Shown one piece after another: positions 1,284 to 38,323 of a DNA stretch of 64,000 bases. The DNA comes from Gemmatimonas sp. Lineage in GTDB: Bacteria; Gemmatimonadota; Gemmatimonadetes; Gemmatimonadales; Gemmatimonadaceae. The translations under genes and the position numbers were made by a program. Numbering within the stretch: the first letter of the stretch is position 1; the number at the start of each line of letters is the position of its first letter. The stretch spans positions 896,001 through 960,000 of the forward strand of contig OZ257156.1 of the NCBI GenBank assembly GCA_965279375.1, in the 5' to 3' direction. The notes under the pieces were generated by a model. The model worked only from the letters and a program-made list of their open reading frames with translations. It was not told the origin of the DNA and did no database searches.

Positions 1284-1343
1284 CGGCTGCTACAACCGCA
1301 ACGGTGGATTGAACTGCGGATATCAACTCAACGGTTACAGCGT

Positions 1344-1453: not shown

Positions 1454-1513
1454 CAAAGAGTTGTAGTTATCCCTTGGTCTGACTAACGCGCGGATGCGGC
1501 CGAGCAGGCAGCT

Positions 1514-2134: not shown

Positions 2135-2138
2135 GGCG

Positions 2139-2453: not shown

Positions 2454-2484
2454 CCGCGGCGAGAGCGGCCGCGGACCTCGCCTT

Positions 2485-5744: not shown

Positions 5745-5821
5745 GTCGGAACTTACCACCTTTGAGTGGTCGCGTGTCGGACCAGCTCGCCCGACACGTT
5801 TACGCCACCGCTATGTCACTG

Positions 5822-6808
5822 CTATGCCGACGCCGCGACCAGCGCTTCGATCCTCTTGCGCATCGCTTCGTCGGGGAGCGCGCCGCGCGCCGCGCCCTGA
5901 TTGTCCTGCAGATACGCCATCGTGGCGGTACCGGGAATGACACAGGTCACCGCCGGGTTGGACAGGATGTACTTGAGGAAGACCTGTGCCCACGTCGTGG
6001 CCTCGAACTCCTTGGTCCACTCGGGCACCGGCTTCCCCAGCACGTTCTGAAAGACGCGACTGCGCCCGAAGGGCAGGTTGATCAGCACGCCGATCCCCTT
6101 GTCCCGGGCCAGCGGCAGGATGCGATCGGCCGCTTCTCGATTATCCACGGCGTAGTCCACCTGGATGAAGTCCAGCGTCTCCTTCTGCATCAGCTGCTCG
6201 AGTGCGGCATACTGCCGCTCGCTCGACGTCGTCACGCCGATGTATCGAATCTTCTTCGCCTGTTTCATGTCGCGCAGCACGGGCAACAGCGTCTCGGTGC
6301 CGCCGAGGTTCCACACCTGCATGAGATCCACGCGATTGGTCTTGAGCCGCGCGAACGACTCCTCCATCTGCTTGATCCCTTCGGCCGCGTCCGTTCCGCG
6401 CACCGACACCTTGGTCGCCAGGAAGAGCTTGTCCCTGTTCCCCGCCTTGGCCACCAGTTCGCCCACCACACCCTCGGCGGCCCCATAACTGGGCGCCGTA
6501 TCGATCAGCTTTCCGCCCAGCTCCGGCAGCTTTCGCAACACATCGAGCAGCGGTGCCTTGGCCTCTTCTGTGGTCACGTCGTAGCGCCGTGCCGTGCCGA
6601 TCCCGATCGCGGGGAGCTTTTCGCCGCTGCTTGGGATGGTGCGCAGAATGAGCGGTCCAGACTGTGCGGTCAGACGAGACAGTGGAAGCAGCGGTGTCAG
6701 AGCGAGCCCGAGTCCTGCGCCAATGCCGAGCTGCAGCGCATCGCGCCGTGTCACGGTGCGGTGGAGCAGACTGCTGTGTGCCGGAGAGGAGGTCCGAGGG
6801 TCTGTCAC
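5822..6808 (-). CDS. Aldo/keto reductase with twin-arginine-like leader
   Basis: TRRDALQLGIGAG leader; IGIGT, IDTAPSYG, FLATKV, DLMQVWN, IRYIGVT, VIPGT; probable GTG start at 6808. Confidence 0.88.
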   Translation of the reverse strand: MTDPRTSSPAHSSLLHRTVTRRDALQLGIGAGLGLALTPLLPLSRLTAQSGPLILRTIPSSGEKLPAIGIGTARRYDVTTEEAKAPLLDVLRKLPELGGKLIDTAPSYGAAEGVVGELVAKAGNRDKLFLATKVSVRGTDAAEGIKQMEESFARLKTNRVDLMQVWNLGGTETLLPVLRDMKQAKKIRYIGVTTSSERQYAALEQLMQKETLDFIQVDYAVDNREAADRILPLARDKGIGVLINLPFGRSRVFQNVLGKPVPEWTKEFEATTWAQVFLKYILSNPAVTCVIPGTATMAYLQDNQGAARGALPDEAMRKRIEALVAASA

Positions 6809-9085: not shown

Positions 9086-9538
9086 TTACGTGTCGTCGTC
9101 GCCAAACGTAAAGAACGTCACGGGCGTGGGCACGCCGCCGATGGCCCGATAGAAGTCGAGCGCGTGCGTGTCTTCGTTGTCGGCGGGGACGAACGCGATC
9201 GAGATGCCCGCCTTTGCGGCCTCGGCGCAGAGTGTCGTGACGAGCCTTCGACCGACCCCGTGGCGTTGCCAGGCCGGCACTACCGCCAGATCGTAGATGA
9301 AGAGTTCGGAAACTTCCGCACGCGTGAGCGGCAGCGTGTGGGCGGTCAGTCCACCGGCCAGCTGGCCGTCGACACTGGCGTGGAGCGCCCAGAAATCGGG
9401 GCGCTGGAGCAACTGCAGGAGATAGGCATCGCTGAGTGGATCGGCCTCGGTCTCGAACACGTCGGCCATCGTCGCGAACAGCTGGCGCGCGCGCGCCACG
9501 TCGGCGACCGTGAGTCGTGTTACCTGAATGTCCGCCAT
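9086..9538 (-). CDS. GNAT acetyltransferase, AAC(3)-I-like, in a gene cassette
   Basis: ELFIYDLAV...QRHGVGRRL, FVPADNED...ALDFY parallel AAC(3)-I motifs; follows GTTAGGT core site; TAA stop lies within an R''-like AAC. Confidence 0.8.
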   Translation of the reverse strand: MADIQVTRLTVADVARARQLFATMADVFETEADPLSDAYLLQLLQRPDFWALHASVDGQLAGGLTAHTLPLTRAEVSELFIYDLAVVPAWQRHGVGRRLVTTLCAEAAKAGISIAFVPADNEDTHALDFYRAIGGVPTPVTFFTFGDDDT

Positions 9539-9575
9539 CGCGCCTCTCGCCTCCGTCATAGAAGTCGTGCACGCC

Positions 9576-9667
9576 ACCTAACGCTGGCTTCTGCTGCGAG
9601 CGGAGCGCGTGATGCCGTGCGCCACGCTGTTGGTTGGTCCGCTCGTCAGCAGCAATCATCGTTCGAA
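9576..9667 (-). mobile_element. Integron attC site (non-canonical R'')
   Basis: Minus strand: TTCGAAC-GATGA-TTgCTGCTGaCGAGCGGA...TCCGCTCGCAGCAGAA-GCCAGC-GTTAGGT; two extrahelical bases, 5/6-nt spacers. Confidence 0.82.
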
Positions 9668-9731
9668 CCCGTGTAGGTGCTGGCGAATCGTGCGAACGGG
9701 CCGCCGCTGTTCAAGCTCCCTCAACTCTGCG

Positions 9732-11282
9732 CTAGGCCCGGTCGGGCACATACATCAATTGCCCTGTTCTGTCCGGTTCCAGGCAATAGATGTCCCATCC
9801 GGCGTTCACCTTCTCCTTACGGTAAGCCATCGCCACATTCTTCCCGTCCGTGCGCAGGTTGATCGCACCATACACCTCCACGCCGCGACCAAGCACCGTG
9901 CGTTGGATTCTTTCAAAGGCTGCCTGGGCCTCTTCACGCGCTGTGTCCGTGCTGGCCTTCTCCACCTTCTCCTCTGCGTCTTTGAGCCTGTCGTAGTCTT
10001 CCTTGGTCACACCGTTCTCTCTGGCCGAGCGCGCCAGTTCCGTGCTGAAGATCAGCGGACGCTTGCCGCGCCCATACAGCCCTATTGCGCCCAATGTGTC
10101 GCATCGGGGATGCGCATGGCTTTCGTTGTCACCGCTGGATATGACCGTGGCGACCGCGTTGAAAGCGCGCATCAGGTCATCTGGAATGTCATGGCTACCG
10201 TGGTGGCAGCTCTTGGCCACATCGCTTTGGAAAACCTCGCGAGCGAGCATTACCGCTGCCTCCCGCGCTGCTCCAGACTTTGGTAGCGGCTCTCCATCGT
10301 TGCCGTATTGCTCCAACAGAAACTCCCCAGCAGAGGTGTTGAGGTCTCCGCCCAAAAGCAGTTTCACAGCGCCATACTGCAACTGCAGGATCACAGAATG
10401 TCCGTTCTTGGTTTTGCCCTTGTCAAAGCTCTTACTCCGCGGCGAGGGTCCGAACCAGCGCAGCCGATCTACCCCATCGCTATTTCTCTCCAGCACTGGG
10501 CCGAGCACTTGTATTTGAAGGTCGTTCTCTCCTGGCTTGAACCCGGGCAGGTACGACTTCTTGCCTGGCTTGGCATTCAACGCTTTGAATGCATCCACTC
10601 GCTTGGATTCCACGAGGTTGTTGAGCAGCGTGCCGTACACCTTGGGCGACTCCCTGCCTGCTGCGGTCGTTCCCACCCAGCGCGATCGATCCTTCAAGAA
10701 ATCCTTCATCCCCTTGCTGTCCTTGATGATCTCATCGACATAACGCCGCCCGTCGATATCGACATGTGCGCCGAGACCGTCATCGCTTGTGTCTTCGATG
10801 ATGCCATTGTGGTAGATGGTGCTGAATCGCACGTTGGCATCCTCGAAAAGCCACTCGAAGCCCTTGTAGTGGTCCAGATCGGAGTGGCTGATAATCCCCG
10901 TGAACTTGAAAGGCACCGGCTGCTTTCTGAAGTTGTACTTCCACCTCAGGAAGCGGTACATGTTGTTCGCCTGGCCGGCGTCCAGAATGATATGCTGGTC
11001 ATCCGGGGTGCGAATAAGGGCGCCATCACCCTGACCGATGTCAACGAAGGTCACTTCCAGCAATCGATCATTCTGAACTTCCGCTTCCTTCACGCGGCAG
11101 GGCATGTTCGCCTCCAGGCCTCGGGGGCGCACAGGTAACCAGCCACCTTCTGCTCTTCCGGTAACCTCCATCCAATCGCCCCAAAGTAGTTCACGCGTTC
11201 TTGTTCTGCCGTCTTCCTCCTGCACCTTGAGCGTGGCCTTGGGATAGCCAGCGTAGCAGACGTCTCCTTTCTCGTATGGCAT
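9732..11282 (-). CDS. MBL-fold metallohydrolase (ComEC/Rec2-like)
   Basis: FVDIGQGD, ILDAG, SHSDLDH metal motif, LLGGD, KSCHHGS, SSGDNESHAHP. Confidence 0.88.
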   Translation of the reverse strand: MPYEKGDVCYAGYPKATLKVQEEDGRTRTRELLWGDWMEVTGRAEGGWLPVRPRGLEANMPCRVKEAEVQNDRLLEVTFVDIGQGDGALIRTPDDQHIILDAGQANNMYRFLRWKYNFRKQPVPFKFTGIISHSDLDHYKGFEWLFEDANVRFSTIYHNGIIEDTSDDGLGAHVDIDGRRYVDEIIKDSKGMKDFLKDRSRWVGTTAAGRESPKVYGTLLNNLVESKRVDAFKALNAKPGKKSYLPGFKPGENDLQIQVLGPVLERNSDGVDRLRWFGPSPRSKSFDKGKTKNGHSVILQLQYGAVKLLLGGDLNTSAGEFLLEQYGNDGEPLPKSGAAREAAVMLAREVFQSDVAKSCHHGSHDIPDDLMRAFNAVATVISSGDNESHAHPRCDTLGAIGLYGRGKRPLIFSTELARSARENGVTKEDYDRLKDAEEKVEKASTDTAREEAQAAFERIQRTVLGRGVEVYGAINLRTDGKNVAMAYRKEKVNAGWDIYCLEPDRTGQLMYVPDRA

Positions 11283-11333
11283 CGCGATGGTGGTATGGGT
11301 TTGACGTGTGTAGCGCGTGAGTCGAGTGTGTTA

Positions 11334-14300
11334 TCAATCAAACGCGCGGAGGATCCCCTTGATGGCGGCGCGTCGTGTCGGCTTTTTGATTTTTCCAGCG
11401 CACTGTCGGCAGAGTTCCAGCGGCCCGGCGTCCCATCGAATGTCCTCCTCGTTGTTGTAATAGCCGGGACAGTTCTTGGGGCCGATGGAATGCGTCGACA
11501 CCTCGCTTAACGAAAAAGCGAGCGCATTCGCGAGGAAACGCTCAATCGTGTACGGTGCATGCATTTTTTCGAGTCGGCCGCCAGTAGAAACAATGGAGAT
11601 GCGTCCGTCGTCCGATACGCTCGCTGACAAACTCTCTTTGCCGTCGCTCCAAAGCGCCATTGTGGTAATGCAACACAGTTGCGCCACGCCGAGCCGCTCG
11701 AGCGTTGGTTTCAGCTTCGTTTCGACTTCTGCGGCGTCGAGCACCGCGTGCTGCGTATTCCTTTGCCGTGATCGACGCCACGTGCCCAATGGCGCGGTGA
11801 GGTTCGCGCGTTCAAACACAAACACCTCTTGTGCATCATTGAGCCGTTGAACTACCCTATTGAGTTCGGGAATGACGTAGTTGAGATCCCATATCGCAAT
11901 GGTTGGCTTGGTGGATCGCGTGAGCGATCGCCGTGCAGTCGTGGCTGGAGCGAGATCCGTCATGCGAGCGATTGCTGTCGCGGACGTATCAGCGTGCGGA
12001 ACCAACACGTCATCTGGGTTGCGCGCGAACAGCACCGGAACGGCCCAGTCGATAGCCTCGCCCGCAATTGAATAGTTGACAGCCACGCGAGCCTCACGCG
12101 CAGCATCGCCGATCGTGCGGCCAATACTCAATGCCCAATAGAAATGTTGCGCGAATGCGGTGGCCGAGACATCCAACACGCTAAACTGATTTGCGACAAT
12201 GGCGGGAACCCCACCGCTCACGAGCATTGGCGCGACGCCGCTTGAAAAATCGAACACGCGATTGGGGTGACGTCGACCAAATCCGGTGCCCGTTTCGCAC
12301 GCATTCAGAAAGACGAGGCGCACGCCGCGATGGGCCGCGATCTGCCGGAAAATGTCAGCGCGTAACTCGTGAGACCGCCCCGACCGATCTTCGAACAGCA
12401 AATATCCAAATCCGGTTGTCTCGTCAAACTCTCCGTGACCAATAAAGTGGAGCACATCAAAGCGATCACCAATGACGTCGGTGAGGCTCAACAGTTCATG
12501 CAGCTTTTGCGGTGTGACGTCGACTTCGACTTGTACTTCCGCAAGCCCCGCACGAATGAGCGGTTCAAACGCGCTCCGCACCATGGAAATCTCTTCATCG
12601 ATCGAAAGCGCACCTGCGCCCACGGGCTGTGCGGCAATGACGAGAATGCGAAGCTTGCCAGAACGCGCACCCAATGCATCAGCCGGCACGGCCGTGATGG
12701 AATTGCGAATGAAGTTCACTTCTTCCGTACAAATAAACGTTTCTTCGTACGGATCGAACGCAAATTCCCATGGTTTGTCCGCTACCCAACCGATGGTTGA
12801 AGTGAGGCACACATTGAGACGCCGCTCTTTCAATTCTGCACGCGCAGTGTCGTAGAGTCGCCGCACCTCTCCAGGGAAAATCGAATCGAACAGGAGCGCT
12901 CCGTACTTGCGAAGCTCTTCCTCCGAGGGAAGGGATTTGTACCTGGAATTTCCGTCGATGTATCCCTTGATTCGTTTATGCGTGTTGTCAATGAGTTGAT
13001 AGCGATCCCGCGCTTCGCCTCTCGTCGGCCGGAATGGTTCAATCACACGCGCATTGCGAAAGCTGGCAATGAGCAACGCGGTGTCGCCTTTGGTGCTGTT
13101 TGCAACCATCTGCGAGAGGCCGTAGTCGGAGTCGTTTTCTTTCGGCATCGCGAGCGCATTGAGCGGCGACACAATGAAGAGGTGCAGCACTTCGTCAAGA
13201 AATGATTGCCGGCTGGGACGCACCGTGGAGACTCTTGGCGGGTGATTACCGTCGGTCTCGGGTGGCAGAGTGGTGGATGGTGGATTGATAGGCGGTGTTG
13301 CAGCACCGCGCGCATCTGATGTCATCGCTCCATTGCCACGTCGACCGTCGCGCTTCGTTGGCAATTCCGCGTCGAGCTGCATCGTAGGAAGCCCTTGTGG
13401 CTGGCCGAGTACGGCGCGCGCCAGGAAATCGACTGTTTCCGTTTGATTGAAGAAGGTGGTGTGCGTCACATCGACAGGTCCGTTCGTTCGCAGATTGCCA
13501 CCGGGACCGTAGCATCCGACACGATCGTTTCCAACGATGGTCATGGTTGGCGTTCCTACTCTCCAACCGCCGCGGGTTGGAACGACGAGATCATTCGCCA
13601 TACCAAAAAATCCATCAACACCCACATCGACCATGCGTGCCACCACACCTTCGCTCGGCTCGTGATTCGACGCGAGTGCTGACCATGTTCCGGCGGGATG
13701 CGGCAATGATTGCAATTCGTCGATCAGTGGACCGCGCGGATTCATAGTTGCCAATCCGGGAATGACATCGCCAACTTTTCCGGCCAACCACGCGACCGAC
13801 TCGACGAGAAAATCCGCGCCCGTGGTAAATGGATTGTCAGGAAAGAGATCGATGACATTGCCGATCCAATCCGTGAAGAGGTGCCATCGATCTGGTGATG
13901 CTAGCGGGGTTCCTTCGTTGGGTCCGGCGACGAGTACGACATTGCCCACGCTAAAGCGTTTCGCGAGCGGGGCGAGTTCAGCGCTTTCGAGAATCGTGCG
14001 AAGCACCAATGCGCCGCGAGAATGCGTGATAACATCGAATTCCTGATTCGTTGTTGACAACGCCAACATTAGGTCGCGACCATTCGCCTCTGCAGTTTCG
14101 CTCACCGTAAAGTGATTGAACGCGTAAATGCGTTCGCCATACGTTGCTCGAACCTTGTCAAAGAACGTCTGCCCATCCGCTCCGCGGGTTTTTCCGAGTG
14201 CACCAAACCCTCCCTGAAAATTGGAGAAGGTGCCGTGAATGAACAGCAGCTTTCGTCCTTCTGGGAGCTTGCGCGAATTCTTGAGTTGTACGAGCGACAG

Positions 14301-14990
14301 CGTACCATCTGCGCCCACCTGCACCTGCTGAAAACCTCGCACTATTTTCTTCTTCTTCCAAGTACGTGTTTCCCAAAGCGACGCAAGTTTTTCGATCGCG
14401 AAGTCGGCAACTTTGTCGGCGGCTTTCTTCATGATCTTGACCACGACAAACTTGATGACTTTGCTGACGGGGCCGCGCCGTCCGGTTGCTGTCGCCGAAC
14501 TCTGGGTGGTAATGCGAAAGCGAAGTACGCCCTGTGGGCTCGACGAACGCTTTTTGTCGGTTGACTTTGCAGCTCTGCGCTTTCGTGCGCCGCGCATTCC
14601 TGTGCCGAGGATGTCACCGACCGCGAAACTCACGGCATCCGATGCATGACGTGCAATGACGACGTGCGTTTGGCGATCTGTCGGCTCGTATTCGAATGTG
14701 AGCGGTTGATCCTCCACGTTGCGCCGTGCTGGAAGCACCGCTTCGTGCGAGCTTACCATCTCGATTTCATTCGTGGCAAGCAGTGTCTTGACAAATGGGT
14801 CGATCCCGCTGTCGGCCCGTTGGCCTCGTCGCACTCGCCGTGCGCGTTCCGCGAGTGGTGCTGCGGAGATAAACCACGCACTGGTGCTCGTAATTGCACC
14901 TCTGCCCGAAGTACCTGATCTCTTCGTACTGGCGCGCTTGGTCGTTGATCGAGAGGCAACGGAGCGCTTGGGTCGGCGAGGCGAGGGCAT
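11334..14990 (-). CDS. Alpha/beta-hydrolase + CHAT (caspase-like) protease + Cys-rich C-terminal domain
   Basis: Lipase-like FIHGTFS, THSRG, NDLVVP, VTH; CHAT motifs PWE, LHFIGHG, VFLNAC, VANQFSV, WAVPVLF; C-terminal H...CPGY...LCRQC. Confidence 0.85.
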   Translation of the reverse strand: MPSPRRPKRSVASRSTTKRASTKRSGTSGRGAITSTSAWFISAAPLAERARRVRRGQRADSGIDPFVKTLLATNEIEMVSSHEAVLPARRNVEDQPLTFEYEPTDRQTHVVIARHASDAVSFAVGDILGTGMRGARKRRAAKSTDKKRSSSPQGVLRFRITTQSSATATGRRGPVSKVIKFVVVKIMKKAADKVADFAIEKLASLWETRTWKKKKIVRGFQQVQVGADGTLSLVQLKNSRKLPEGRKLLFIHGTFSNFQGGFGALGKTRGADGQTFFDKVRATYGERIYAFNHFTVSETAEANGRDLMLALSTTNQEFDVITHSRGALVLRTILESAELAPLAKRFSVGNVVLVAGPNEGTPLASPDRWHLFTDWIGNVIDLFPDNPFTTGADFLVESVAWLAGKVGDVIPGLATMNPRGPLIDELQSLPHPAGTWSALASNHEPSEGVVARMVDVGVDGFFGMANDLVVPTRGGWRVGTPTMTIVGNDRVGCYGPGGNLRTNGPVDVTHTTFFNQTETVDFLARAVLGQPQGLPTMQLDAELPTKRDGRRGNGAMTSDARGAATPPINPPSTTLPPETDGNHPPRVSTVRPSRQSFLDEVLHLFIVSPLNALAMPKENDSDYGLSQMVANSTKGDTALLIASFRNARVIEPFRPTRGEARDRYQLIDNTHKRIKGYIDGNSRYKSLPSEEELRKYGALLFDSIFPGEVRRLYDTARAELKERRLNVCLTSTIGWVADKPWEFAFDPYEETFICTEEVNFIRNSITAVPADALGARSGKLRILVIAAQPVGAGALSIDEEISMVRSAFEPLIRAGLAEVQVEVDVTPQKLHELLSLTDVIGDRFDVLHFIGHGEFDETTGFGYLLFEDRSGRSHELRADIFRQIAAHRGVRLVFLNACETGTGFGRRHPNRVFDFSSGVAPMLVSGGVPAIVANQFSVLDVSATAFAQHFYWALSIGRTIGDAAREARVAVNYSIAGEAIDWAVPVLFARNPDDVLVPHADTSATAIARMTDLAPATTARRSLTRSTKPTIAIWDLNYVIPELNRVVQRLNDAQEVFVFERANLTAPLGTWRRSRQRNTQHAVLDAAEVETKLKPTLERLGVAQLCCITTMALWSDGKESLSASVSDDGRISIVSTGGRLEKMHAPYTIERFLANALAFSLSEVSTHSIGPKNCPGYYNNEEDIRWDAGPLELCRQCAGKIKKPTRRAAIKGILRAFD

Positions 14991-21029: not shown

Positions 21030-22340
21030 TCAGGCGGCGAGCTGAGAGTCGTTGAGTGTGAGGCACTGGTAGGCCGCGTGGATCGTGGCCGCGTCCACGC
21101 CGCCCATGAGGCGTGCTTCGCGACAGAGACCACGAACGCACTCGCGGGCGATCGCTCGCGAATCGTCGTTGACGCGCTCTGCGTCCCACGTCGGTAGGAG
21201 CTCGTGCGACACCGCGACAACGCCGCCGCCGGAAACAATGGGATCGGGGATGAACACAATGCCAACGGCCGTGAACTCCTGAAGCAGCGCGTCGCCGCGA
21301 TGCTCGATCGAGCCGAGTTGGTCGTTGCCGGCGCCGAGGATCAGGCGAACGCGTGCGCCCGCGCGGCGAGCCGCGGCCAGGATCTCACCTCGGGTGCGCA
21401 GATCGCCGACGGGGCGCGTGCCTAGGAAATCGGTGCCTCCTCCGTTCGGGCTGACGACCTCGACCGTCGGATCTTCGAGCGCGGCAACCTCAGAGTCGAA
21501 GACGCTGCCACGCTCGACCAATCGGCGCAGCAGCGCCAGGTGGCGCTCTTCATCGACCTCGCCGCCGCGCGCCTTTGTGGCACGATAGAGACGATCCGCG
21601 GAATCGAGGGACGGATCGAGTTGCGGATCGAACACAACGACGTCGGCGCCAGCGCGATCGAGCAGGTACGCGAGAGGGAGACCAACCTTGCCGAGACCAA
21701 GAACGAGCACCCGAACCTCATCCAAGGATGTCTGGCCCTGCAGCTCCTCGATCGTCTCGAGCAGGCCCGCCTTCACGCCTTCCGCTGTCGCCTCACCAGT
21801 GTCACGTCCGCACTTGAGGCCGATCGTGTAATCGGTGAGGGAGTTCATCAGTTCCAGGTCCGCGTGACTCAGGCCCTGATCAAGCGAGCCAAGGTAGTCG
21901 CCAGCAATGAAGTTCAGGAGCGCCGCATGCGCGCGAAGGCGAGCCTCTCCCACGCCGGTGCCACCGGGGCCGAGTTTGTGCTCCGCAGGAACCCAGATCG
22001 TCCCCTTGCCTCCGGCCCACGAGTAGTGCCGCACGTCGGGTCCCAAGCGGCACGCCGCTCCATAGATGAGCGTCGTCTTGGCGTCCATGGCCCGCGCGAG
22101 CGCCCCAGCGGTGCGCAAGGCATGGGTGTGATCAGGGCACTGAACGATCCGGGTGCCACCAAGACCGACGCGGTTACCCCCCAACGCGGTCTTCGAGACG
22201 ACGACCGAGCTGTAGATCCGGGCGTCGGGGGCGACCGAAGACCCGTTGAAGGCTTCGAAAAGGACGTAGCCGCCATCGAATCGCGCGGGACCTCGAAGTG
22301 TGAGATCCCCCTGCTGAACTTCGCGGTAGTGCATCGACAT
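21030..22340 (-). CDS. Divergent Leu/Phe/Val dehydrogenase family protein
   Basis: LGGTR, LARAMDAK, GGK, D in SLDQG, ATAEGV, Rossmann GLGKVG, GAGNDQL, PD...GGVV; purine-rich RBS GAGAAAGG before ATG 22340. Confidence 0.82.
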   Translation of the reverse strand: MSMHYREVQQGDLTLRGPARFDGGYVLFEAFNGSSVAPDARIYSSVVVSKTALGGNRVGLGGTRIVQCPDHTHALRTAGALARAMDAKTTLIYGAACRLGPDVRHYSWAGGKGTIWVPAEHKLGPGGTGVGEARLRAHAALLNFIAGDYLGSLDQGLSHADLELMNSLTDYTIGLKCGRDTGEATAEGVKAGLLETIEELQGQTSLDEVRVLVLGLGKVGLPLAYLLDRAGADVVVFDPQLDPSLDSADRLYRATKARGGEVDEERHLALLRRLVERGSVFDSEVAALEDPTVEVVSPNGGGTDFLGTRPVGDLRTRGEILAAARRAGARVRLILGAGNDQLGSIEHRGDALLQEFTAVGIVFIPDPIVSGGGVVAVSHELLPTWDAERVNDDSRAIARECVRGLCREARLMGGVDAATIHAAYQCLTLNDSQLAA

Positions 22341-22431
22341 GGCCTTTCTCTCGCACGAAAAGGGTGAGCCCGAGCAAAGGACGGACGGCAGGCCAGCCGC
22401 ATCTGCGCAGGCGGTCAATCTACTTACCGCG

Positions 22432-22460
22432 ATAATATATCATATTTATCTTCATTGCAA
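22432..22460 (-). promoter_or_regulatory. Sigma70-like promoter for the dehydrogenase-leuS-E1 operon
   Basis: Minus strand TTGCAA-N17-TATTAT inside a very AT-rich patch. Confidence 0.65.
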
Positions 22461-22529
22461 GAGTTTATATCGATTAAAATAGCCTAAGGTATCGAGTTGA
22501 GTGCGTTCCGCGGGGAGGCGTCGTTGGGT

Positions 22530-22559
22530 TTGACGGATTATCTATGGAGCTCGTAGTAT
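22530..22559 (+). promoter_or_regulatory. Sigma70-like promoter for the RSH-ATPase operon
   Basis: TTGACG-N18-TAGTAT, 45 nt before ATG 22605; GGAGAG RBS. Confidence 0.55.
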
Positions 22560-22604
22560 TCCTTCGGGGGATTCATAGACGGGCCGATAATCGTTGGAGA
22601 GAAC

Positions 22605-25600
22605 ATGATGAATACCGAGCCGAACGGAGATAGATTTCACACCCCGTTGATGCGTGGCGCCGGGACCGGTGCGGTCCTCGCCGTTCCGGCAAGCCGTGTG
22701 GAGTGGGATCACTGTCAACGCCTTGCGGCGATCCTTCACCAGCGGTTCGACGATCCCGTGCTCACCGAAGCGGGGTTGCTGCACGGCATAGGTGCCCACG
22801 CAGTTGAACGACTCGGCGCGAGCGGAAGGCCAGAGGTCGTCGCGATTCTCGAGGATGTCGAAAAGCTTCGCGCGCTTGAGTTCCGTGACGAGGATCTGAC
22901 GGGAAGTGCTCTTCGAAACGTCTTGCCGCTTCTACGGGATCCGCGGTCCGGCGTGCTGCTGGCGTTCGACCAACTGGACCACGTCGACCCCGATCAATCC
23001 TTTAGACGATGGAGCGCAAAGTTCCACCGTCTTCCCGAGATCGGCGTGGACGCGCTTCCGAGAGAGACCGCGCATCTCGACCCGTTAGTGGAACTCGGGT
23101 CCTATCCACGATTTCTTCGCCGCGTGGTGGCTCCGGTCGCCGCACTCAGTGGATTTTGGCGCGAGCGAAATGCTCTGGATGACTGCGCAACCCTGATTTG
23201 GGACCCCGATCGTGCTAAGGACATCTCCATCGAGGTGAGGCGAGCATCGGGGGCGTGTCGACGCTTGGTTGGGGAAATTGAGGCTTCCTTTGGCGATGGA
23301 GCCGACGCTTCGGTGCTTTGGGAGTGGCGGCACCTCGGTCGGCTGGATCGAGAACTTCCGCGGTCGAACGATCAACTTGCCAGCGCTTTCGATGCACGCA
23401 TCGGAACCCTCGGCTTCGTCACGGTCGTGTGCGTGGACGAGGACGAGTGCTACCGGCTTCTAGGCCGCATTCATCGTCACTTCGAGGGGAGGGGGGAGGC
23501 GTTCCGGGACTATATCGGCAACAAGAAGGGCGACGACTACCGTGCGCTCCACACGCGCGTGGGTCGCCAAGGAGCGGGACGCGGTCCGCGAGAGATCTCC
23601 ATCCGCTTGATTTCCCGAAGTGATGACTTGAAACGAAGCCAGCCGGCTCGACGGTGGCATGATCTGCGCCCGACGAATCCCGCCGGTCCGATGCGCGTGT
23701 TCACCCTCCACGGCGACCCGGTCGATCTTCAGCCGGGTGCTACTGTGGCTGCGTTCGCGGTCGAGGTACACGACGCTCTGCTATTCTACGCGATCGGCGC
23801 CCGGGTCAACCGTCGAACGGTCGAGCTAAACTACAAGTTGTCGCCCGGCGACGTCGTTGAAGTGCTAAAGAGCGAGCGGCTGCAGCCGCTTCCGTCTACT
23901 TGGAAGACTTGGATCCCCGAGATTCTGCCGCAGTCGACGACTTCGTTAAGGGAGTCGACGCCGAACCCAACGCATCGAAGAGTGCGAAAGGCGTATAAAC
24001 GCTTGTTCGAGAGCGAACTCGGCCGGCAGGGATACGCTGAGCTGGAACGACATCTCATACGAGAAGGAATCCGTCGGGTTCCCAGCATGGACGAGATCGG
24101 CCGATTCATTCTTGCGGCAGTGAACTCTTTGTCGGGAGCGCCCCGCAGCGCATGGCTGGACGCGGATTGGTGGTTGCAGCAGATCGGGGCGCTGGTCTAC
24201 AACTCAAAAGACTTCGACCCACTCTTCGAAGTTCAACTCACGAAGGATTTCCAAGGTCTTCTCTTCGAGAAAGTTCGAGACTTGGTCGCCGCCAGCCAGC
24301 TCTGTGAGGAGCTCGGTATCGATCCGCGGACGGCTGGTACTTTCTCTCTGGTACGATGCTCGGCCTGCCATCCTACGACGAGCGACCAAATCCTCGTCGA
24401 ACGGACATACTCGCTACTCACGCTGCACAGGGCCGGTGCTGACTGCGCCAAGGACGCTAGGCCGGTCGACGCCATTGGTCCCTTCGAAGATCAGTTCCTC
24501 TGGATTGAAGGACCGAATAGAGTGGGGTTTGCGGCGACTGTCGCCGAAACATTTTCGAAACACGGTATCGACATCGAGGAGATCATCGCACGAGCGATAA
24601 ATCAGCAGCGAGCTGCCGTCAGGGTGCAGCTGGCGCCTCTGCCGGCTACTCGACTGAAGCAGGTCCTCGAAACATTGCGATCGAACCATGGACTGAAGGT
24701 GACCGACCCGGACGCCGGCCAAGCGACCAGTGAAGAGCGAAATCACTTTCCTCCACGGTCAATGCGCTCGGCCACCCCGCTGACAGATTTCGTTGACTCG
24801 CCATACCGCGTCGGTGACGCACTCTATCAGGACGCGGATTTCTACGGTCAGCAAAGCTCTCTGACGAAACTAAGGACCATCTTTGAAGGCCTGTTGGCGA
24901 ACCCACGTGGTCACGGCCGTCGTTGCTCGATACTGGGGCCGATTAAGGTGGGGAAGACATCGCTGGCGCTCGCGTTCCTCCGCAGGATGTCGAAGGACCA
25001 CGATAGGGTGACGACGATTTATGAGCGGGCGACCCAAACAATGACGTGGCAGGAGATGGAGGCGAATCTTCGAGAGACGATCCTGAAAGAATCTGCCGAG
25101 GTTGCCGCACGCAACAATCGTTCTTTCGACCTTCCACCCGACATCGCACGCAACACGAACATGTACACGGTCGTCAATTCTGTGCGCGAACGTACCGGCG
25201 GTCCAATGATTATCGTGATCGACGAAGCACCGTGGCTGTTCAAAACCTCGCACGAGGGCGGAGAGGCATCCCGACTCGCAGAGGTGGTAGCGCAGCTGCT
25301 TCGAGCCGGCGTGATGTTGATCTGCGTTGGCCCCAAAGTCGGATTCGAGCGTATCCCACCGCGCTTGAGGCCGATCCTTCGCGATGGGACCGATGTCTCC
25401 GTCGACAAGCTGACGCTTCTTGAGGTTCGGGACCTGCTCTTAGCGCGACAGAAGGGAGGTCGATACTCCATCCTGATCGAATCCGGCATTGCCGAAGCTG
25501 TCATGAAAGCAACAAGAGGGAATCCGTTCTGGACAGCCGCGCTCGCAGACAAAATGTGGGAGCTGAACCATGAACGGTACGACAAGACCGTTTTTGAGAA

Positions 25601-25946
25601 CGCGCAAGCTCGTCTGGCGCGTGACAAAATAAAGTTCTACGACCGCTGGGATGATGAGGATCAGTCTTGGCATCCAAATTCGACGATCAAAGGAATTGTC
25701 CGCAAGCTCCTGCAGGAGCTTGCGAAAGAGACTCCTCCCACGGACAAGATGGTTCGAATGCGTACCCAGACTGCTCTCCGCCGTCTGGCGGATGATTCAA
25801 TTCCCTCCGCTGACGAGCTACTCAAAGAACTCGAAGATCTTGGAACCATAGAGCTAAACGCTGAGAGCGCCGGCAAGGATCAGATGTGGTCGCTCGCGGC
25901 ACCAATTTTGGCGCTTCATCTTCGAGAGCATCTTCACAATGCGTGA
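22605..25946 (+). CDS. Degenerate long RelA/SpoT homolog (pseudo-HD, pseudo-synthetase, TGS, Zn-finger, ACT) fused to STAND/AAA-type P-loop ATPase
   Basis: AGLLHG, VVAPVAALSG, ECYRLLGRIH, FRDYIG...DYRALHT; TGS VFTLHG...GATVAAFAVEVH...GARVN...GDVVEV; CSACHP...LHR...DC; ACT NRVGF; SPYRVG, GPIKVGKT, IVIDE, TRGNPF. Confidence 0.8.
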   Translation: MMNTEPNGDRFHTPLMRGAGTGAVLAVPASRVEWDHCQRLAAILHQRFDDPVLTEAGLLHGIGAHAVERLGASGRPEVVAILEDVEKLRALEFRDEDLTGSALRNVLPLLRDPRSGVLLAFDQLDHVDPDQSFRRWSAKFHRLPEIGVDALPRETAHLDPLVELGSYPRFLRRVVAPVAALSGFWRERNALDDCATLIWDPDRAKDISIEVRRASGACRRLVGEIEASFGDGADASVLWEWRHLGRLDRELPRSNDQLASAFDARIGTLGFVTVVCVDEDECYRLLGRIHRHFEGRGEAFRDYIGNKKGDDYRALHTRVGRQGAGRGPREISIRLISRSDDLKRSQPARRWHDLRPTNPAGPMRVFTLHGDPVDLQPGATVAAFAVEVHDALLFYAIGARVNRRTVELNYKLSPGDVVEVLKSERLQPLPSTWKTWIPEILPQSTTSLRESTPNPTHRRVRKAYKRLFESELGRQGYAELERHLIREGIRRVPSMDEIGRFILAAVNSLSGAPRSAWLDADWWLQQIGALVYNSKDFDPLFEVQLTKDFQGLLFEKVRDLVAASQLCEELGIDPRTAGTFSLVRCSACHPTTSDQILVERTYSLLTLHRAGADCAKDARPVDAIGPFEDQFLWIEGPNRVGFAATVAETFSKHGIDIEEIIARAINQQRAAVRVQLAPLPATRLKQVLETLRSNHGLKVTDPDAGQATSEERNHFPPRSMRSATPLTDFVDSPYRVGDALYQDADFYGQQSSLTKLRTIFEGLLANPRGHGRRCSILGPIKVGKTSLALAFLRRMSKDHDRVTTIYERATQTMTWQEMEANLRETILKESAEVAARNNRSFDLPPDIARNTNMYTVVNSVRERTGGPMIIVIDEAPWLFKTSHEGGEASRLAEVVAQLLRAGVMLICVGPKVGFERIPPRLRPILRDGTDVSVDKLTLLEVRDLLLARQKGGRYSILIESGIAEAVMKATRGNPFWTAALADKMWELNHERYDKTVFENAQARLARDKIKFYDRWDDEDQSWHPNSTIKGIVRKLLQELAKETPPTDKMVRMRTQTALRRLADDSIPSADELLKELEDLGTIELNAESAGKDQMWSLAAPILALHLREHLHNA

Positions 25947-27306
25947 TCCGACGCAGATGGGTGGCGGAGCCCCTGCAAATTCTCCGCCAGCTGAGTTCAA
26001 CGGTAACCCGTTCTTCTTCGACGAGCTGATAACGCCGTTGAGCCGGACACTGAAAGAACAAGGCCGATACCTCCGCGGATTTAGGGGGGCAGGAAAAACT
26101 CACATCCTGCGAGCGTTCTCGGTGATCGCCGAATCGATGCTTCTGATGAACCGAAGCCTGAGGGATCGGCCAATCATCTCACCGCTCGATCGGTCGGCGG
26201 AAGAAATCGACATCGTGCTGCGTGACATCGCGCGATCGAAAGGATCGAAGGGAGTTGTCCTCATCGACGACCTAGATCTTCTGCTAGAGCACTCGCAAAA
26301 AGATGGCTTGGACCGCTGGGACTCGCTTTCCGACTCACTGGAGCGGATTTTCACCAGACTTGAGAATGTGCACATTCTCTTCACGACCACCCGCAATCCA
26401 GTTGACATCGGAACGCGGAATCAGATGCTCTCCAACTTCTTGCAAAATGCTCGGGAGCAGCCGCTTGAGCCTTGGAAAACCGCAGAAGAGTGGCACCGAA
26501 AAGTGCGGGATATTCTGGGAGCAAGTCTCGGAGGGGACGCGTGCAGCACTGACGTCGTGGCGAAAGGCATAGTCATACTGAGCGGAGGTCATCCGACCCT
26601 CATCGGTGCCGCCGTGCGGCGGATTCGGAAAACGATGTCGCAGTCGAGCGGATGGATCCCCCCGACCAGGCTTGCGCCCGTGCTCAAGGAGATCCCGCGC
26701 CTTCTCACCGACGACGGCCTCCCGTCTATTAGACGTCGCATCTTAGCGCTGGCCCCAGACCAGCGTAGGGCGCTGGCAGATCTGGCAGGGCATAGCGTAG
26801 GCTACCGTGCGCTCCTCGAGAGGCGAATCGGCGAGGAGCTCACAAATGCAGGGCTTGTACGCAGGCATGACGGCCATCGCGAAGGTCAGCGCGAGTATTC
26901 GATTCCGTCCCCGCTAATTCGGGAAGAGGCATCTGCCGAGCTTTCTTCCCGGGTGGACGATTTCGTTTTGCTTGACCCGTCGACAAGTAATCCAGACCAA
27001 GAAGGCGCGGTGGTCGCCGGTTCGGGATCGACGACTCGCATCGTCAGTCTAAGCGGTCGTTCATGGCAACTCGCGCGTGTGCTCTATGACAACGCGGGGA
27101 AACCGCTGGCGCCCGACGAACTAAATCGACTGCTCGGAGAATTGGTGACCGAAACAGGAAAGCCATTCGTCGTTCACGCCGCGCTCCAACGACTCAGGTC
27201 TTCATTGAAGAACGAGCTGCCGAATCTACTACAAACACATCGCGGCAGCGGATACCTGTTTGACGTACCGCAGCTGCGAGATTACTCCAGGCGACCCAGT
27301 GCTTGA
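25939..27306 (+). CDS. P-loop ATPase with C-terminal OmpR-type winged-helix domain
   Basis: NPF, GFRGAGKT, VVLIDD, SGGHP; C-terminal LARVLYDNAGKPL...ALQRLRSSL...LQTHRGSGYLF; 8-bp overlap with the upstream stop. Confidence 0.8.
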   Translation: MRDPTQMGGGAPANSPPAEFNGNPFFFDELITPLSRTLKEQGRYLRGFRGAGKTHILRAFSVIAESMLLMNRSLRDRPIISPLDRSAEEIDIVLRDIARSKGSKGVVLIDDLDLLLEHSQKDGLDRWDSLSDSLERIFTRLENVHILFTTTRNPVDIGTRNQMLSNFLQNAREQPLEPWKTAEEWHRKVRDILGASLGGDACSTDVVAKGIVILSGGHPTLIGAAVRRIRKTMSQSSGWIPPTRLAPVLKEIPRLLTDDGLPSIRRRILALAPDQRRALADLAGHSVGYRALLERRIGEELTNAGLVRRHDGHREGQREYSIPSPLIREEASAELSSRVDDFVLLDPSTSNPDQEGAVVAGSGSTTRIVSLSGRSWQLARVLYDNAGKPLAPDELNRLLGELVTETGKPFVVHAALQRLRSSLKNELPNLLQTHRGSGYLFDVPQLRDYSRRPSA

Positions 27307-35092: not shown

Positions 35093-38000
35093 ATGACCGC
35101 CTCGCACGTGCAGGATCTCCACGCCCGACTGTCGAAGGCGCTCGAAGGCCAATACAAGATCCTCCAACCGCTCGGTCAGGGCGGCATGGGGATGGTCTTT
35201 CTCGCACGCGACATCACGCTCGATCGGCCGGTCGCGATCAAAGTCATTTCGGCGGAAGTCGGCACCAGCGTCGAGTTGCGCGAACGCTTTGCTCTCGAGG
35301 CGCGCACCGTCGCGCGTCTGCGGCACCCCAACATCGTGGCTGTCTTTGCCGCCGGCGAAGTCGACGGGCTCCTCTACTTCGTCATGGAGTACGTGCCGGG
35401 CGAAAGCCTGCGCGAGCGCCTCCTGCGCGATCGCACGCTGCGCGCCGACGAAGCGGTCCCCCTGCTGCGCGACCTCGCCCTCGCGCTCGACTACGCACAC
35501 GCGGCCGGCATCGTCCATCGCGACGTGAAGCCGGAAAACGTCCTGCTCGATCGGGAAACGGGACGGGCGATGCTCACCGACTTCGGCGTCTCACGCGCCC
35601 TCTCGAACCCCACCAACATCACCGGCGGTGGATTCGTCCTCGGCTCGCCGCGCTACATGAGCCCCGAACAGGCCGCCGGCGAAGACACGCTCGACGGGCG
35701 GAGCGACCTCTATTCACTCGGACTGGTCGCCTACGAGTCGCTCACGGGCGCGCCGCCGATCGACGCACCGACCGCCGCGCAGATCCTCGTCAAACAGATC
35801 TCCGAGAAGATCGAACCGCTTGGCAAGAAGGCACCCAAGCTGCCATCGGACGTGACATCATCCGTCGACCGACTGCTGCACAAGCTCCCCGGCGAGCGAT
35901 TCCAGCGAGGCGCCGAGTTCGCGGCGGCGCTCACCGGCGAAGACTTCGATGCGTCGACGCCGACGCACCAGATCGGACGCATCGTGTCCGGGCCTCGTCG
36001 CGCTGCTGGCAGCCGCAGGCGCGCACGCCCCCTCGCGGCAATTGCATCGCTGCTGGTCGCGCTCGTCGCGATCTTTGCCTGGACGCGCACGCATCAGCCG
36101 GCGGCGAACGACCGCGCGTGGTTCGTCGCCCCCTTCGAGGTGCAGGGCCCCGATCGCTCCCTCGACTGGCTGCGCGAGGGGTCTCTCAACATGCTCACGC
36201 TCTCGCTCGCGCAGTGGACCGACCTCCACGTGATCGAGTACGAGCGCACGCTCGACTTGCTGCGCAACGCAAAACTCGAAGGACAACCGCGCGTTGGACT
36301 CGACGACGCGCGCACGCTGGCCAAGCGGGTCGGTGCCGGACGATTGGTCATGGGACAGGTGGCCACGATGGGCGACTCGATCGTCGTGACCGCCAGCCTC
36401 TATGACGTGAACTCCGGACAGAGCACCGACAAGGCGCGCATCGCCGCAGCCAAGGGAAGCGATCCGCGTCCGCTCTTTGAATCCGTCGCCGGCGAACTGC
36501 TCGATCTCGTTGGCGCACCGCGTCTCACATTCGACCTGGCCAAGCAGACCACCAGCTCGGTCACCGCCTATCGTTTCTACCTCGAGGGGCTGCGCCATCT
36601 CAATCGCTGGCGCTTGCGTCAGGCCGACACCGCCTTTGCGCGCGCCATCGCCACCGACTCCACCTTCGCCCTCGCGCACTACAAACGCTCGCTCGCGCTC
36701 GGCTGGGAAAGCAGCACCGACAGCGCGCGTCTGACCGGTGCGGAAAAGGCGGTGCAGTTCGCCGAGCGACTACCCACGCGGCAACAGGAGATCGTGCGTG
36801 GCCATCTCGATCTCACGCGCGCCTTCGACGCGATGCAGCGCGGCGATACGGCGGGCACGCGCGGCGGCTTTCTCGCCTCACGCAACCGACTGGCGCGGCT
36901 GATCGCGGTGGATTCCACGGATGCAGAGGCCTGGTATGCCCTCGCCGATGCCGACTTTCATCTCGCACTCAACACCACGTACGGATACTCTGCGGACAGT
37001 CTCGCCAAGTATCTAACGGAATCGCTGCGCGGTTTCAGACGAACCATTCACATCGACTCCACCTTCCATCTCGCACATCAGCACCTGGTCGAGATGTATG
37101 GGTTGGCGGCGAACAGTGCCTCGCTGGTGGTGCTGAGCGGCGACACGATCAGGGCGGCTGGCACCAGCGAGGCGGAGCGTCGCATCGGATCGGTCGAACA
37201 GGTGAAGGTGCTACGGGATCAGGCGCAGTCAATGGCGCGGGAAGCCGCGGGCGGTTGGGTGGCTGCAGATCCTGACGCTATCAATGCGCGCAGCACTTTG
37301 GCCAGCATGTTCGAGCAGATGGCCGAGCCGGATAGCGCCATCTCTGCGTTACGCGACGCACTCGCGCGTCCCGCCACCGCCGAGCCGAGCTTCGAATGGC
37401 GTATTCCGCTTATCAAGGCGCGCGCAGGGATGCCGTCGGCCGGCCCCGAACTGCGCGCGGTGATGGCGCGTTTCCCGGCGGACTCGGTGCGTCGCTTCCC
37501 GACGGCCGATCGCTTGCAGGGCGTGCTCGGCGCCATGACCGTCGGTGGCCAGACGGGGATGCCGTCGCTCGTGGATTCCGCGGCTCGACTGCTCAACGCG
37601 ACGGATCCGGTGATGCCCGGCCCCGATCCCATTCGCACGATGCTGGTCACGTCGTGGTTGTCATCGGGGATCAAGGTGGGGATGGGACTGCCGATGAATG
37701 GCGCGACACGAGCGGTGCTGCTGGACGGCGTGCGCACGATCGAACGCGTGCAGGTGGATGCGCGCCGCGATGCGTCCACGCCGTACATGGTCTTTCTCGA
37801 AACGCGTGATCCAGCGTTCGCCGAGATCGCGCGCCGCTGGAGTCCAGCGCCAGCGACCGGTTATCCGGAGTTGGATGCGCTCGCCGCCATCCGGCGCGGC
37901 GACACCGCCACCGCGATGCGCATCGCGCAGGCGTTCCCCTCAGCCGACTCGCTGCGCCGCGCCGCTCTGGGGATGACCGGTATGCGGACCATTGCCCGCG

Positions 38001-38323
38001 CCTCGGTCTTTGCGGAGCTGGGCGATCTGCGCCGGGCGATCGAGCTGTACGAGACCATCGATCCCAAGCGCTTTGGTCAGACGGGCTTTCCCGAAACCAC
38101 CTGGCCGATGTATGTGCGCAGCTACCTCGCGCGCGGTCATCTTCTGGCACAGCTTGGAGAGCGGGAGCGAGCGATCGCGTCGTACGAGCGTTTCCTGACG
38201 CTTTGGAAAGACGCCGAACCGCCGCTGCAACCGCAACTCAGAGAAGCGCGCGAGGCGATCGCCCGACTGCGGGATGCAGGCTATGCCCGGGGAGGGACCG
38301 CCATGAAGGCCACCGTCAAGTAA
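35093..38323 (+). CDS. Ser/Thr protein kinase with TM segment and TPR-like C-terminal region
   Basis: GQGGMG, VAIK, HRDVKPEN, DFG, YMSPEQ; TM helix; helical repeats. Confidence 0.93.
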   Translation: MTASHVQDLHARLSKALEGQYKILQPLGQGGMGMVFLARDITLDRPVAIKVISAEVGTSVELRERFALEARTVARLRHPNIVAVFAAGEVDGLLYFVMEYVPGESLRERLLRDRTLRADEAVPLLRDLALALDYAHAAGIVHRDVKPENVLLDRETGRAMLTDFGVSRALSNPTNITGGGFVLGSPRYMSPEQAAGEDTLDGRSDLYSLGLVAYESLTGAPPIDAPTAAQILVKQISEKIEPLGKKAPKLPSDVTSSVDRLLHKLPGERFQRGAEFAAALTGEDFDASTPTHQIGRIVSGPRRAAGSRRRARPLAAIASLLVALVAIFAWTRTHQPAANDRAWFVAPFEVQGPDRSLDWLREGSLNMLTLSLAQWTDLHVIEYERTLDLLRNAKLEGQPRVGLDDARTLAKRVGAGRLVMGQVATMGDSIVVTASLYDVNSGQSTDKARIAAAKGSDPRPLFESVAGELLDLVGAPRLTFDLAKQTTSSVTAYRFYLEGLRHLNRWRLRQADTAFARAIATDSTFALAHYKRSLALGWESSTDSARLTGAEKAVQFAERLPTRQQEIVRGHLDLTRAFDAMQRGDTAGTRGGFLASRNRLARLIAVDSTDAEAWYALADADFHLALNTTYGYSADSLAKYLTESLRGFRRTIHIDSTFHLAHQHLVEMYGLAANSASLVVLSGDTIRAAGTSEAERRIGSVEQVKVLRDQAQSMAREAAGGWVAADPDAINARSTLASMFEQMAEPDSAISALRDALARPATAEPSFEWRIPLIKARAGMPSAGPELRAVMARFPADSVRRFPTADRLQGVLGAMTVGGQTGMPSLVDSAARLLNATDPVMPGPDPIRTMLVTSWLSSGIKVGMGLPMNGATRAVLLDGVRTIERVQVDARRDASTPYMVFLETRDPAFAEIARRWSPAPATGYPELDALAAIRRGDTATAMRIAQAFPSADSLRRAALGMTGMRTIARASVFAELGDLRRAIELYETIDPKRFGQTGFPETTWPMYVRSYLARGHLLAQLGERERAIASYERFLTLWKDAEPPLQPQLREAREAIARLRDAGYARGGTAMKATVK

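Follow-up and report, generated by a model that had tools for sequence, protein, structure and literature searches.

A long RelA/SpoT homologue with two predicted dead catalytic sites, fused to an AAA+-type ATPase and paired with a second ATPase gene in Gemmatimonas sp.

The DNA analysed here, referred to as the window, is a stretch of 64,000 nucleotides of Gemmatimonas sp. (assembly GCA_965279375.1, contig OZ257156.1, positions 896,001 to 960,000 of the forward strand). An uninterrupted open reading frame (ORF) on its forward strand, at positions 22605 to 25946 and with a GGAG 8 nt 5' of the ATG, encodes a protein of 1113 residues, P0001, in which the whole body of a long RelA/SpoT homologue (RSH) is joined to an AAA+-type ATPase and a winged helix. 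The residues expected at both RSH active sites are lost while the ATPase motifs are conserved, a second ATPase gene follows directly on the same strand, and the pair recurs in distant bacteria. We tentatively favour, as somewhat short of an even chance, that the protein, a derivative of RelA, senses deacylated tRNA, the state of the ribosome or a ligand, and that it would drive an ATP-dependent switch made of two proteins with a DNA-binding output.

The initial annotation of this stretch had described a full-length RelA/SpoT scaffold, and both profile and structure comparisons bear this out. The profile of 71 aligned family members and that of 27 canonical RSHs were compared with hhalign and aligned as a single colinear block (Prob 100, E 2.4e-50, 614 columns), extending over family columns 24-703 and canonical columns 48-728 of 739; at this E value the RSH likeness of the family is far beyond chance. 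The AlphaFold2 (AF2) model of P0001 has a predicted local distance difference test (pLDDT) score of 86.1 and a predicted TM-score (pTM) of 0.68, and it is confident across the RSH-ATPase junction except for residues 722-729. Foldseek matched this model to full-length RelA on the ribosome (5kpv; E 7.6e-23, 726 columns), to full-length SpoT (7qpr) and to B. subtilis Rel (6yxa), with about 720-750 columns across the three; the N-terminal 700 residues were in this way checked and found to model as RSH domains. The score of P0001 with the NCBIfam spoT_relA model (TIGR00691) is 71.6 bits, far under the cut-off of 499.2. A canonical Rel of 726 residues, which reaches 770.5 bits with the same model, is encoded elsewhere in the genome, so the P0001 copy appears dispensable for (p)ppGpp metabolism. 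Mean column conservation in the 71-member family is alike in all domains, between 0.29 and 0.47, which suggests that the whole protein is under selection.

The domains, all on the forward strand, are arranged as follows. The pseudo-hydrolase (HD-like) domain (residues ~30-170; 22692-23114) was recognised by colinearity with the canonical HD domain in hhalign and Foldseek, and the Pfam scan of P0001 gave no HD match. The pseudo-synthetase domain (residues 171-345; 23115-23639) aligns to RelA 181-349 and is matched by Pfam RelA_SpoT at residues 273-336 (31.8 bits, cut-off 27). After the TGS domain (residues 363-422; 23691-23870; Pfam TGS E 1.6e-10) come the helical (AH) domain (residues ~455-569; 23967-24311), with model helices at 455-486, 495-532 and 547-569 that are colinear with those of RSHs, and the zinc-finger (ZFD/CC) domain (24345-24449), placed by alignment of C585, C588, H608 and C614. 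The ACT/RRM domain (residues ~630-700; 24492-24704) shows a beta-alpha-beta-beta-alpha-beta order in the model and RSH colinearity; Pfam ACT covers residues 634-692 with 21 bits (E 2.9e-4), under the cut-off of 27. The AAA+ ATPase, of AAA_16 or PF01637-like type, occupies 24840-25604, and a C-terminal helical and winged-helix module (residues 1001-1113) occupies 25605-25943. The positions first assigned to the TGS domain (23691-23870), the zinc finger (~24357-24444), the ACT domain (~24504-24680) and the motifs GPIKVGKT (24936) and IVIDE (25212) all translate correctly.

Judged by the aligned residues, both RSH catalytic sites are dead, in P0001 and family-wide, as the initial annotation had proposed for the former. 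As reference we took the residues invariant in the 27 canonical RSHs, which for the synthetase are the equivalents of RelSeq R241, K243, D264, R269, E323 and Q325, and compared them with the 71 aligned members. None of the members keeps more than two of the six synthetase residues or more than one of the five hydrolase residues. The available text of PMC7983052 describes D264 and E323 of RelSeq as catalytic, and R241 and R269 as sandwiching the ATP adenine. The equivalent of R241 is E240 (E in 57 of the 71 members, R in 5), that of K243, position 242, holds R or H in the family (R242 in P0001), and the family motif WEWRH stands in place of GRxKH. The region corresponding to D264 (263-268) is unconserved; both MAFFT and HMMER place D263, within a FDAR motif, opposite the catalytic Asp and before an insertion of 5-7 residues, and this Asp is not conserved in the family either. 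R269 is replaced by T273 in P0001, with R in a single member. Position 330, equivalent to E323, holds A, S or L, with E in only one member, which is P0001 itself (E330), and position 332, equivalent to Q325, is S332 in P0001 and Q in 0/71.

For two of these motifs the first reading had to be shifted. The RxK motif is lost as claimed, but its reading as WRH was one residue off, since the true alignment is E240-W241-R242, with R changed to E and K to R. The ExQxRT motif is altered as claimed, but the segment, again displaced by one residue, aligns as E330-I-S332-I-R334-L335, such that the Glu equivalent to RelSeq E323, thought to be missing, is kept. In the hydrolase site, the replacement of LLHD by LLHG was confirmed by the alignment: the HD motif reads HG (H60-G61, G61 being equivalent to D78), with G in 54 members and D in 2. 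The ED pair of the hydrolase is lost, and the N149 and R151 equivalents of the NMR motif (RLHNMRT) are H126 and D128, the latter present in 71/71.

D128 is one of a set of new residues that have become invariant or nearly so in the old active-site regions, together with W239 and W241 (70/71 each). One could take them, along with E330 and perhaps D263 kept in P0001, as parts of remodelled pockets (WEWRH, HG...E...D128) that catalyse another nucleotide reaction. We regard such an altered chemistry as very improbable: the family as a whole lacks both Mg-binding carboxylates (E at position 330 in 1/71) as well as both adenine-sandwich arginines (R at 240 in 5/71 and at 273 in 1/71).

The new residues conserved in the old sites allow for a ligand. 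In a receptor that follows the ligand-binding sensor of the initial annotation, a guanosine nucleotide, (p)ppGpp or a branched-chain amino acid would occupy the dead sites or the ACT domain and thereby gate the ATPase without the ribosome. The near-invariance of W239, W241 and D128 is consistent with such a receptor, and so is the retention in the HD pocket of H36, H60 and E/D122 (D122 in P0001), which align with three of the four HD-domain metal ligands. The synthetase pocket has lost its ATP- and Mg-binding residues but retains the guanine-side residues Y312 (66/71), H316 (58/71) and D302 (65/71); the DYI and YxxLHT motifs had rightly been recognised as surviving. Y312 corresponds to RelSeq Y308, a guanine contact in the available text of PMC7983052. 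Nevertheless, we consider a receptor of this kind unlikely, given that variants without the HD and synthetase half keep the remaining architecture.

These variants, of ~740-770 residues (P0130, P0138, P0158 and P0163), begin at the TGS domain and keep everything from there through the ATPase; one TGS-start variant sits in a genome of the same genus (G247, locus L011). Across the family, the zinc-finger ligands C585, C588, H608 and C614 are kept in 70, 70, 70 and 63 of the 71 members, respectively. The TGS histidine noticed initially in the motif FAVEVH is indeed present: H389 aligns to H432 of E. coli RelA, with His in 47/71 and Asn in 12. According to the available text of PMC7797070, H432 makes a stacking contact with the 3' CCA of uncharged A-site tRNA, and an isolated TGS-helical fragment specifically reads deacylated tRNA. 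Conservation of the C-terminal ribosome/tRNA half, together with the variants lacking the pseudo-catalytic half, makes the sensing of tRNA or the ribosome at least as likely as that of a small ligand, and the signal we prefer is deacylated tRNA or the state of the ribosome because the part common to all variants is the RelA half that binds ribosome and tRNA. The variant of the same genus, 750 residues long and without the HD/synthetase half, spans 9391-11643 of L011 (contig C20 of G247); it has its own partner ORF at 11574-13106, and an rve integrase gene lies just downstream, at 13336-14349.

After the ACT domain follows an intact P-loop NTPase, as had been claimed, with a Walker A motif (G778-PIKVGKT-S786), a Walker B motif (D873-E874), a FYG motif and G972-NPF in P0001. 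Residues G783, K784, S786, D873, E874 and G972 are invariant in 71/71 members. Pfam AAA_16 matches residues 746-883 (35.5 bits, cut-off 32.6), and ATPase_2 (PF01637) gives 22.0 bits, under its cut-off of 33.2. For the modelled ATPase region (residues ~746-1113), the closest structures in Foldseek were 2qen (TMt 0.69, root-mean-square deviation 4.8) and 2fna (0.63), as well as the archaeal Orc1/Cdc6 structures 2v1u, 2qby and 1fnn, and Apaf-1 ranked lower. The C-terminal module, with an H-H-H-E-E-H order in the model, is aligned in these comparisons to full Orc1/Cdc6 chains including their winged helix. The ATPase of P0001 is thus, as modelled, an ORC/Cdc6-like AAA+ with winged helix, of AAA_16/PF01637 type. 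The initial label of STAND-like holds only approximately, since there is no repeat arm: neither the Pfam scan nor the model revealed TPR, WD40 or LRR repeats in P0001, which stops ~110 residues past the ATPase. Pfam models of the STAND clades (NACHT, NB-ARC and nSTAND1-6) gave no match on P0001 at E<=1.

The gene that follows, at 25939 to 27306 on the forward strand, starts 8 nt before the end of the stop codon of the fusion gene, and codes for P0002, a STAND/ORC-like ATPase of 455 residues with a C-terminal winged helix-turn-helix (wHTH) of OmpR type. P0002 holds Walker A (G52-K53), Walker B (D110) and GGHP motifs; Pfam Trans_reg_C matches its residues 369-441 with 30.0 bits (cut-off 26.2), and no receiver domain was found in it. 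We examined 12 loci, from the window, another genome of the genus and 10 species-representative genomes, and in 12/12 of them a same-strand ORF of ~390-530 residues lies directly after the fusion, split in two in L012. Clustering by BLASTP groups the partners of 10 loci, tblastn adds those of L011 and L018, and no other neighbour is conserved around the fusion. Trans_reg_C was detected in 6 of the 11 partner ORFs scanned, the one scanned for L018 being probably in the wrong frame, and several partner ORFs match nSTAND3, nSTAND5, nSTAND6, AAA_16 and ORC-CDC6-like models.

The two ATPases of the pair are themselves related. Although BLASTP of the fusion ATPase against P0002 is not significant, hhalign aligns the two ATPase profiles with Prob 95 and E 3.5e-8 over 191 columns, and the homology is thus visible only from profile to profile. 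The model of P0002 (pLDDT 75.5) is matched by Foldseek to 2qen (TMt 0.53) and to the Orc1/Cdc6 heterodimer on DNA, 2qby; NLR proteins and CED-4 come next. A predicted complex of P0001 residues 735-1113 with P0002 scored 0.00, which is informative neither way. A protein search with the partner alignment returned only P0002 and two weak matches (E 4e-7 and 3e-6) of eukaryotic Cdc48-type AAA proteins, in an index that is insensitive for a family this divergent. With its DNA-binding domain, the partner, which the initial annotation had overlooked, likely supplies the output of the fusion.

HMMER, run exhaustively against 1.84 billion representatives, found 117 cluster representatives of the fusion at E<=1e-30; among those listed, nearly all have a length of ~1050-1160 residues and match end to end with 24-32% identity. 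Identity between members is only 21-30%. In the ESM Atlas, three clusters share this domain set and number 87, 63 and 53 members. Searched with a 14-row subset of the family alignment, 10 independent species-representative genomes carry the fusion; they are labelled Acidobacteriota (2), Gemmatimonadetes, Thermoanaerobaculia, Saccharimonadales, Ca. Angelobacter, Rickettsiales, Myxococcota, Proteobacteria and Thiotrichaceae. The initial expectation that the fusion is no assembly artefact is upheld by these representatives and genomes. For an artefact of assembly or gene calling, in which a degenerate rel would have been run together with a separate ATPase gene, there is next to no chance; it is ruled out by the uninterrupted frame in a complete single-contig genome, by the 117 representatives, mostly end-to-end, by the 10 genome loci and by the confident model at the junction.

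The pair is rare and scattered across phyla. The full-length form occurs under at least seven phylum-level labels; it was found in at least one of the 401 genomes sampled of the phylum of the window (the genome of the window itself, G000, with 16 searched in its genus) and in at least one of the 401 sampled of the phylum of G417, counts that are lower bounds as two candidates per genome were scored. A scan of metagenome contigs was dominated by canonical RSH genes, the TGS motif pattern being generic, and none of the 80 loci kept matched past residue 698. The plasmid and phage collections held no family member, only partial matches of canonical RSH type with coverage of at most 41%.

In a sister subfamily (P0174, P0175 and P0179, ~1115 residues), the RSH half scores above the Pfam cut-offs for HD_4 and RelA_SpoT and keeps the HD dipeptide; the equivalents of R241 and D264 are still absent. 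The ATPase of this subfamily is of nSTAND1/ATPase_2 type, with P0175 and P0179 matching nSTAND1 at 43 bits (cut-off 27.1). The sister subfamily may represent a stage in the evolution from an active Rel to the dead form, and a linker motif common to both subfamilies before Walker A, PYxxG...FYG, suggests a single fusion event.

Two of the 12 loci depart from the usual gene structure. In L012 (contig C56 of G417, 131574-134915) the member has one in-frame TGA and the split partner occupies two ORFs, 9182-9970 and 9921-10661 of the locus, which may reflect a decaying copy or sequencing errors. In L018 an open frame of 1834 residues (970-6474) has ~750 residues of N-terminal excess with no Pfam domain at E<=0.001, probably an over-extended frame in high-GC DNA and not a real fusion.

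The surroundings of the fusion in the window were examined next to those of the other loci. Divergent from it, on the reverse strand at 21030 to 22418, lies a gene for an ELFV-dehydrogenase-like protein of 462 residues, a possible cargo or target, with a weak Pfam ELFV match. None of the 20 other same-genus genomes searched has an ortholog of it, and it shares only ~33% identity over ~115 residues with the ordinary enzyme of 360-380 residues in same-genus genomes. A 28%-identical ELFV-like gene occupies the same position in L012, and genes for leucyl-tRNA synthetase (LeuRS) and a fused 2-oxoacid dehydrogenase E1 come after the ELFV-like gene in the window; this vicinity hints at a link to branched-chain amino acids. 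An amino-acid-dehydrogenase-like neighbour in the window and in L012, with LeuRS and E1 following in the former, would suit the small-molecule receptor discussed above, but such a neighbour is found in only 2/12 loci.

Elsewhere the upstream gene encodes a protein kinase (L013 and L020), a TIR_2 protein (L016) or an unknown protein, and several loci have markers of mobility or defence no more than 6 kb away: an integrase with AbiEii/AbiEi (L015), rve (L011), TraG (L014) and Uma2 (L020). Over 22-28 kb of the window the GC content is 0.57-0.61, against 0.63-0.67 in the flanking segments. DNA synteny with five same-genus genomes is restricted to the phosphoenolpyruvate carboxylase gene, which matches well (68-72% identity); gene order is unconserved and the comparison yields no island bounds.

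Such surroundings raise the possibility of an anti-phage or conflict system of STAND type, with the dead RSH as a sensor arm for translation damage caused by infection, or for a phage protein. The damage sensed could be tRNA cleavage or deacylation, or stalled ribosomes; the two ATPases would oligomerise, and growth would be arrested by the variable neighbours (TIR, kinase, dehydrogenase-like) or by the DNA-binding partner. The scarcity of the full-length form within each of the two sampled phyla, yet its spread under so many phylum-level labels, the low identity among members, the low GC over 22-28 kb and the TIR_2, kinase, Uma2 nuclease, integrase with AbiEii/AbiEi, rve and TraG neighbours are all in line with this proposal. 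So are the nSTAND3/5/6 matches of the partner ORFs and the nSTAND1 type of the sister subfamily, and two-gene systems with two STAND NTPases are predicted as counter-invader in the available text of PMC8195603. Even so, we hold a conflict system, though a serious alternative, to be somewhat doubtful. In a search of PADLOC-DB v2 neither protein had a significant match (mad8, E 0.0028, 15.2 bits; PtuA, E 0.017, 12.4 bits), only the two ATPase genes are common to the 12 loci and no effector is conserved, most neighbours across the loci are ordinary metabolic or envelope genes, and the family is absent from the plasmid and phage collections. The 12 loci are compatible with both nutritional regulation and defence.

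Returning to the favoured sensor of deacylated tRNA or ribosome state, the switch could work in the following manner. In an ancestral long RSH, synthesis and hydrolysis of the alarmone would have been replaced by the fused ORC/Cdc6-like AAA+ ATPase and winged helix. The RSH scaffold would sense a signal, most likely uncharged tRNA or stalled ribosomes, or alternatively a nucleotide or amino-acid ligand, and the signal would release or promote an ATP-dependent association of the two AAA+ modules, comparable to Orc1/Cdc6 paralogues that co-assemble on DNA. The partner, translationally coupled, would then bind DNA and alter how adjacent cargo genes, which vary between lineages, are transcribed, the cargo in the window being perhaps the divergent dehydrogenase-like gene. 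A bolder version, which we find rather doubtful, is that the dead RSH binds to ribosomes that are starved or damaged and its AAA+ module recruits the DNA-binding STAND partner, in a (p)ppGpp-independent pathway from ribosome to promoter carried by a mobile two-gene cassette that fires cargo or defence genes.

Several observations weigh against the sensor of tRNA or ribosome state. The TGS histidine is replaced in 24/71 members, in 12 of them by Asn, and hence reading of the CCA end is perhaps not universal. The invariant W239, W241 and D128 suggest that the N-terminal half has a role of its own, in ligand or protein binding, which a tRNA sensor does not explain, and the retained H36, H60 and E/D122, at positions of three of the four HD-domain metal ligands, imply that a metal site may persist. 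The wHTH of the partner passes Pfam in only 6/11 ORFs. In the AT-rich spacer between the ELFV-like gene and the fusion (22419-22604), a possible regulatory region, we found promoter-like sites, one per strand, and repeats at or below shuffled expectation, and no target DNA site. A look-up of sequencing runs for the stretch returned four DNA runs of one study and no RNA run. Finally, the rarity and patchiness of the pair and its TIR, kinase, Abi and integrase neighbours would fit a conflict system equally well.

Other genes were observed along the way. On the reverse strand of the window, 11334-14990 encodes a protein of 1218 residues with DUF7379 (140.8 bits) and a caspase-like CHAT domain (94.9 bits), in a second patch of low GC (0.57, 10-16 kb); adjoining it, at 9732-11282 of the same strand, is an ORF of 516 residues with a sub-threshold DUF6894 match. 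The stretch from 9732 to 14990 looks like another accessory or conflict-type locus. A Ser/Thr protein kinase of 1076 residues with C-terminal TPR repeats is encoded at 35093-38323 on the forward strand. Outside the window, a short ORF of the same genome (contig C1, 1643171-1643560; locus L002; open frame of 249 residues) matches only the HD part of an RSH model, with 61 bits, and may encode a small alarmone hydrolase.

Long RSH enzymes are the textbook link from starved ribosomes to the alarmone (p)ppGpp. A large and old family that keeps the body of RelA, drops catalysis and gains an ATPase and a DNA-binding partner suggests that the sensing apparatus of RelA can be reused by itself as an input module. 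Should the pair respond to uncharged tRNA on the ribosome, it would constitute a stringent-type pathway independent of the alarmone; if it is a defence system, it would employ a new kind of sensor that watches translation. In either case, nature provides here a pseudo-enzyme with which signal transmission by the C-terminal domains of RSHs can be dissected, and ~100 diverse sequences are available for structural work. Full-text literature searches, whose scope excluded subscription-only papers and the supplements of RSH censuses, returned no description of an RSH-ATPase fusion, and term searches found none in the available text of the RSH census PMC3153485, where the word ATPase is absent, of PMC7159879 and of PMC8195603.

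With respect to known systems, P0001 is closest to Rel, RelA and SpoT, all of them long RSHs, and shares with these the HD-SYNTH-TGS-helical-ZFD-ACT order, colinear over ~680 residues, the zinc ligands and the TGS histidine. RelA already has a dead HD domain (available text of PMC3153485); P0001 differs in having two sites predicted to be dead, an ATPase and winged-helix extension of ~400 residues after the ACT domain, and an accessory position beside a canonical Rel. The AAA+ and winged-helix fold of Orc1/Cdc6 and PF01637 proteins is predicted in the C-terminal 370-400 residues of the fusion and in the partner, and 2qby, where two paralogous proteins of this fold sit jointly on DNA, serves as our working analogy. 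Unlike Orc1/Cdc6, P0001 has the RSH scaffold as an N-terminal sensor and its partner carries an additional wHTH of OmpR type; a role in replication is unsupported.

Regulators of the MalT and AfsR type are STAND ATPases with DNA-binding domains, and similarly couple a P-loop switch ATPase to a sensor and a DNA-binding output. Here, however, sensor and output would be on two polypeptides, the sensor being a pseudo-enzyme without a TPR, WD40 or LRR arm. The NTP-dependent conflict systems, including the two-gene nSTAND2 systems, resemble the pair in their two ATPases, patchy distribution and TIR or kinase neighbours in the available text of Kaur et al. 2020/2021 (PMC7159879 and PMC8195603), and RelA nucleotidyltransferase and TGS domains appear there (PMC7159879) as rare effector-position domains in vWA-MoxR systems. 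They differ from the pair described here, in which a full-length RSH is fused to the ATPase, no PADLOC model matches and no effector is conserved. Another kind of RSH-derived protein outside the housekeeping stringent response is also found in defence. The fused toxin-antitoxin RSH proteins of the toxSAS/CapRel type are short, catalytically active synthetases, whereas P0001 is a long RSH with a synthetase site that is dead as judged by its aligned residues.

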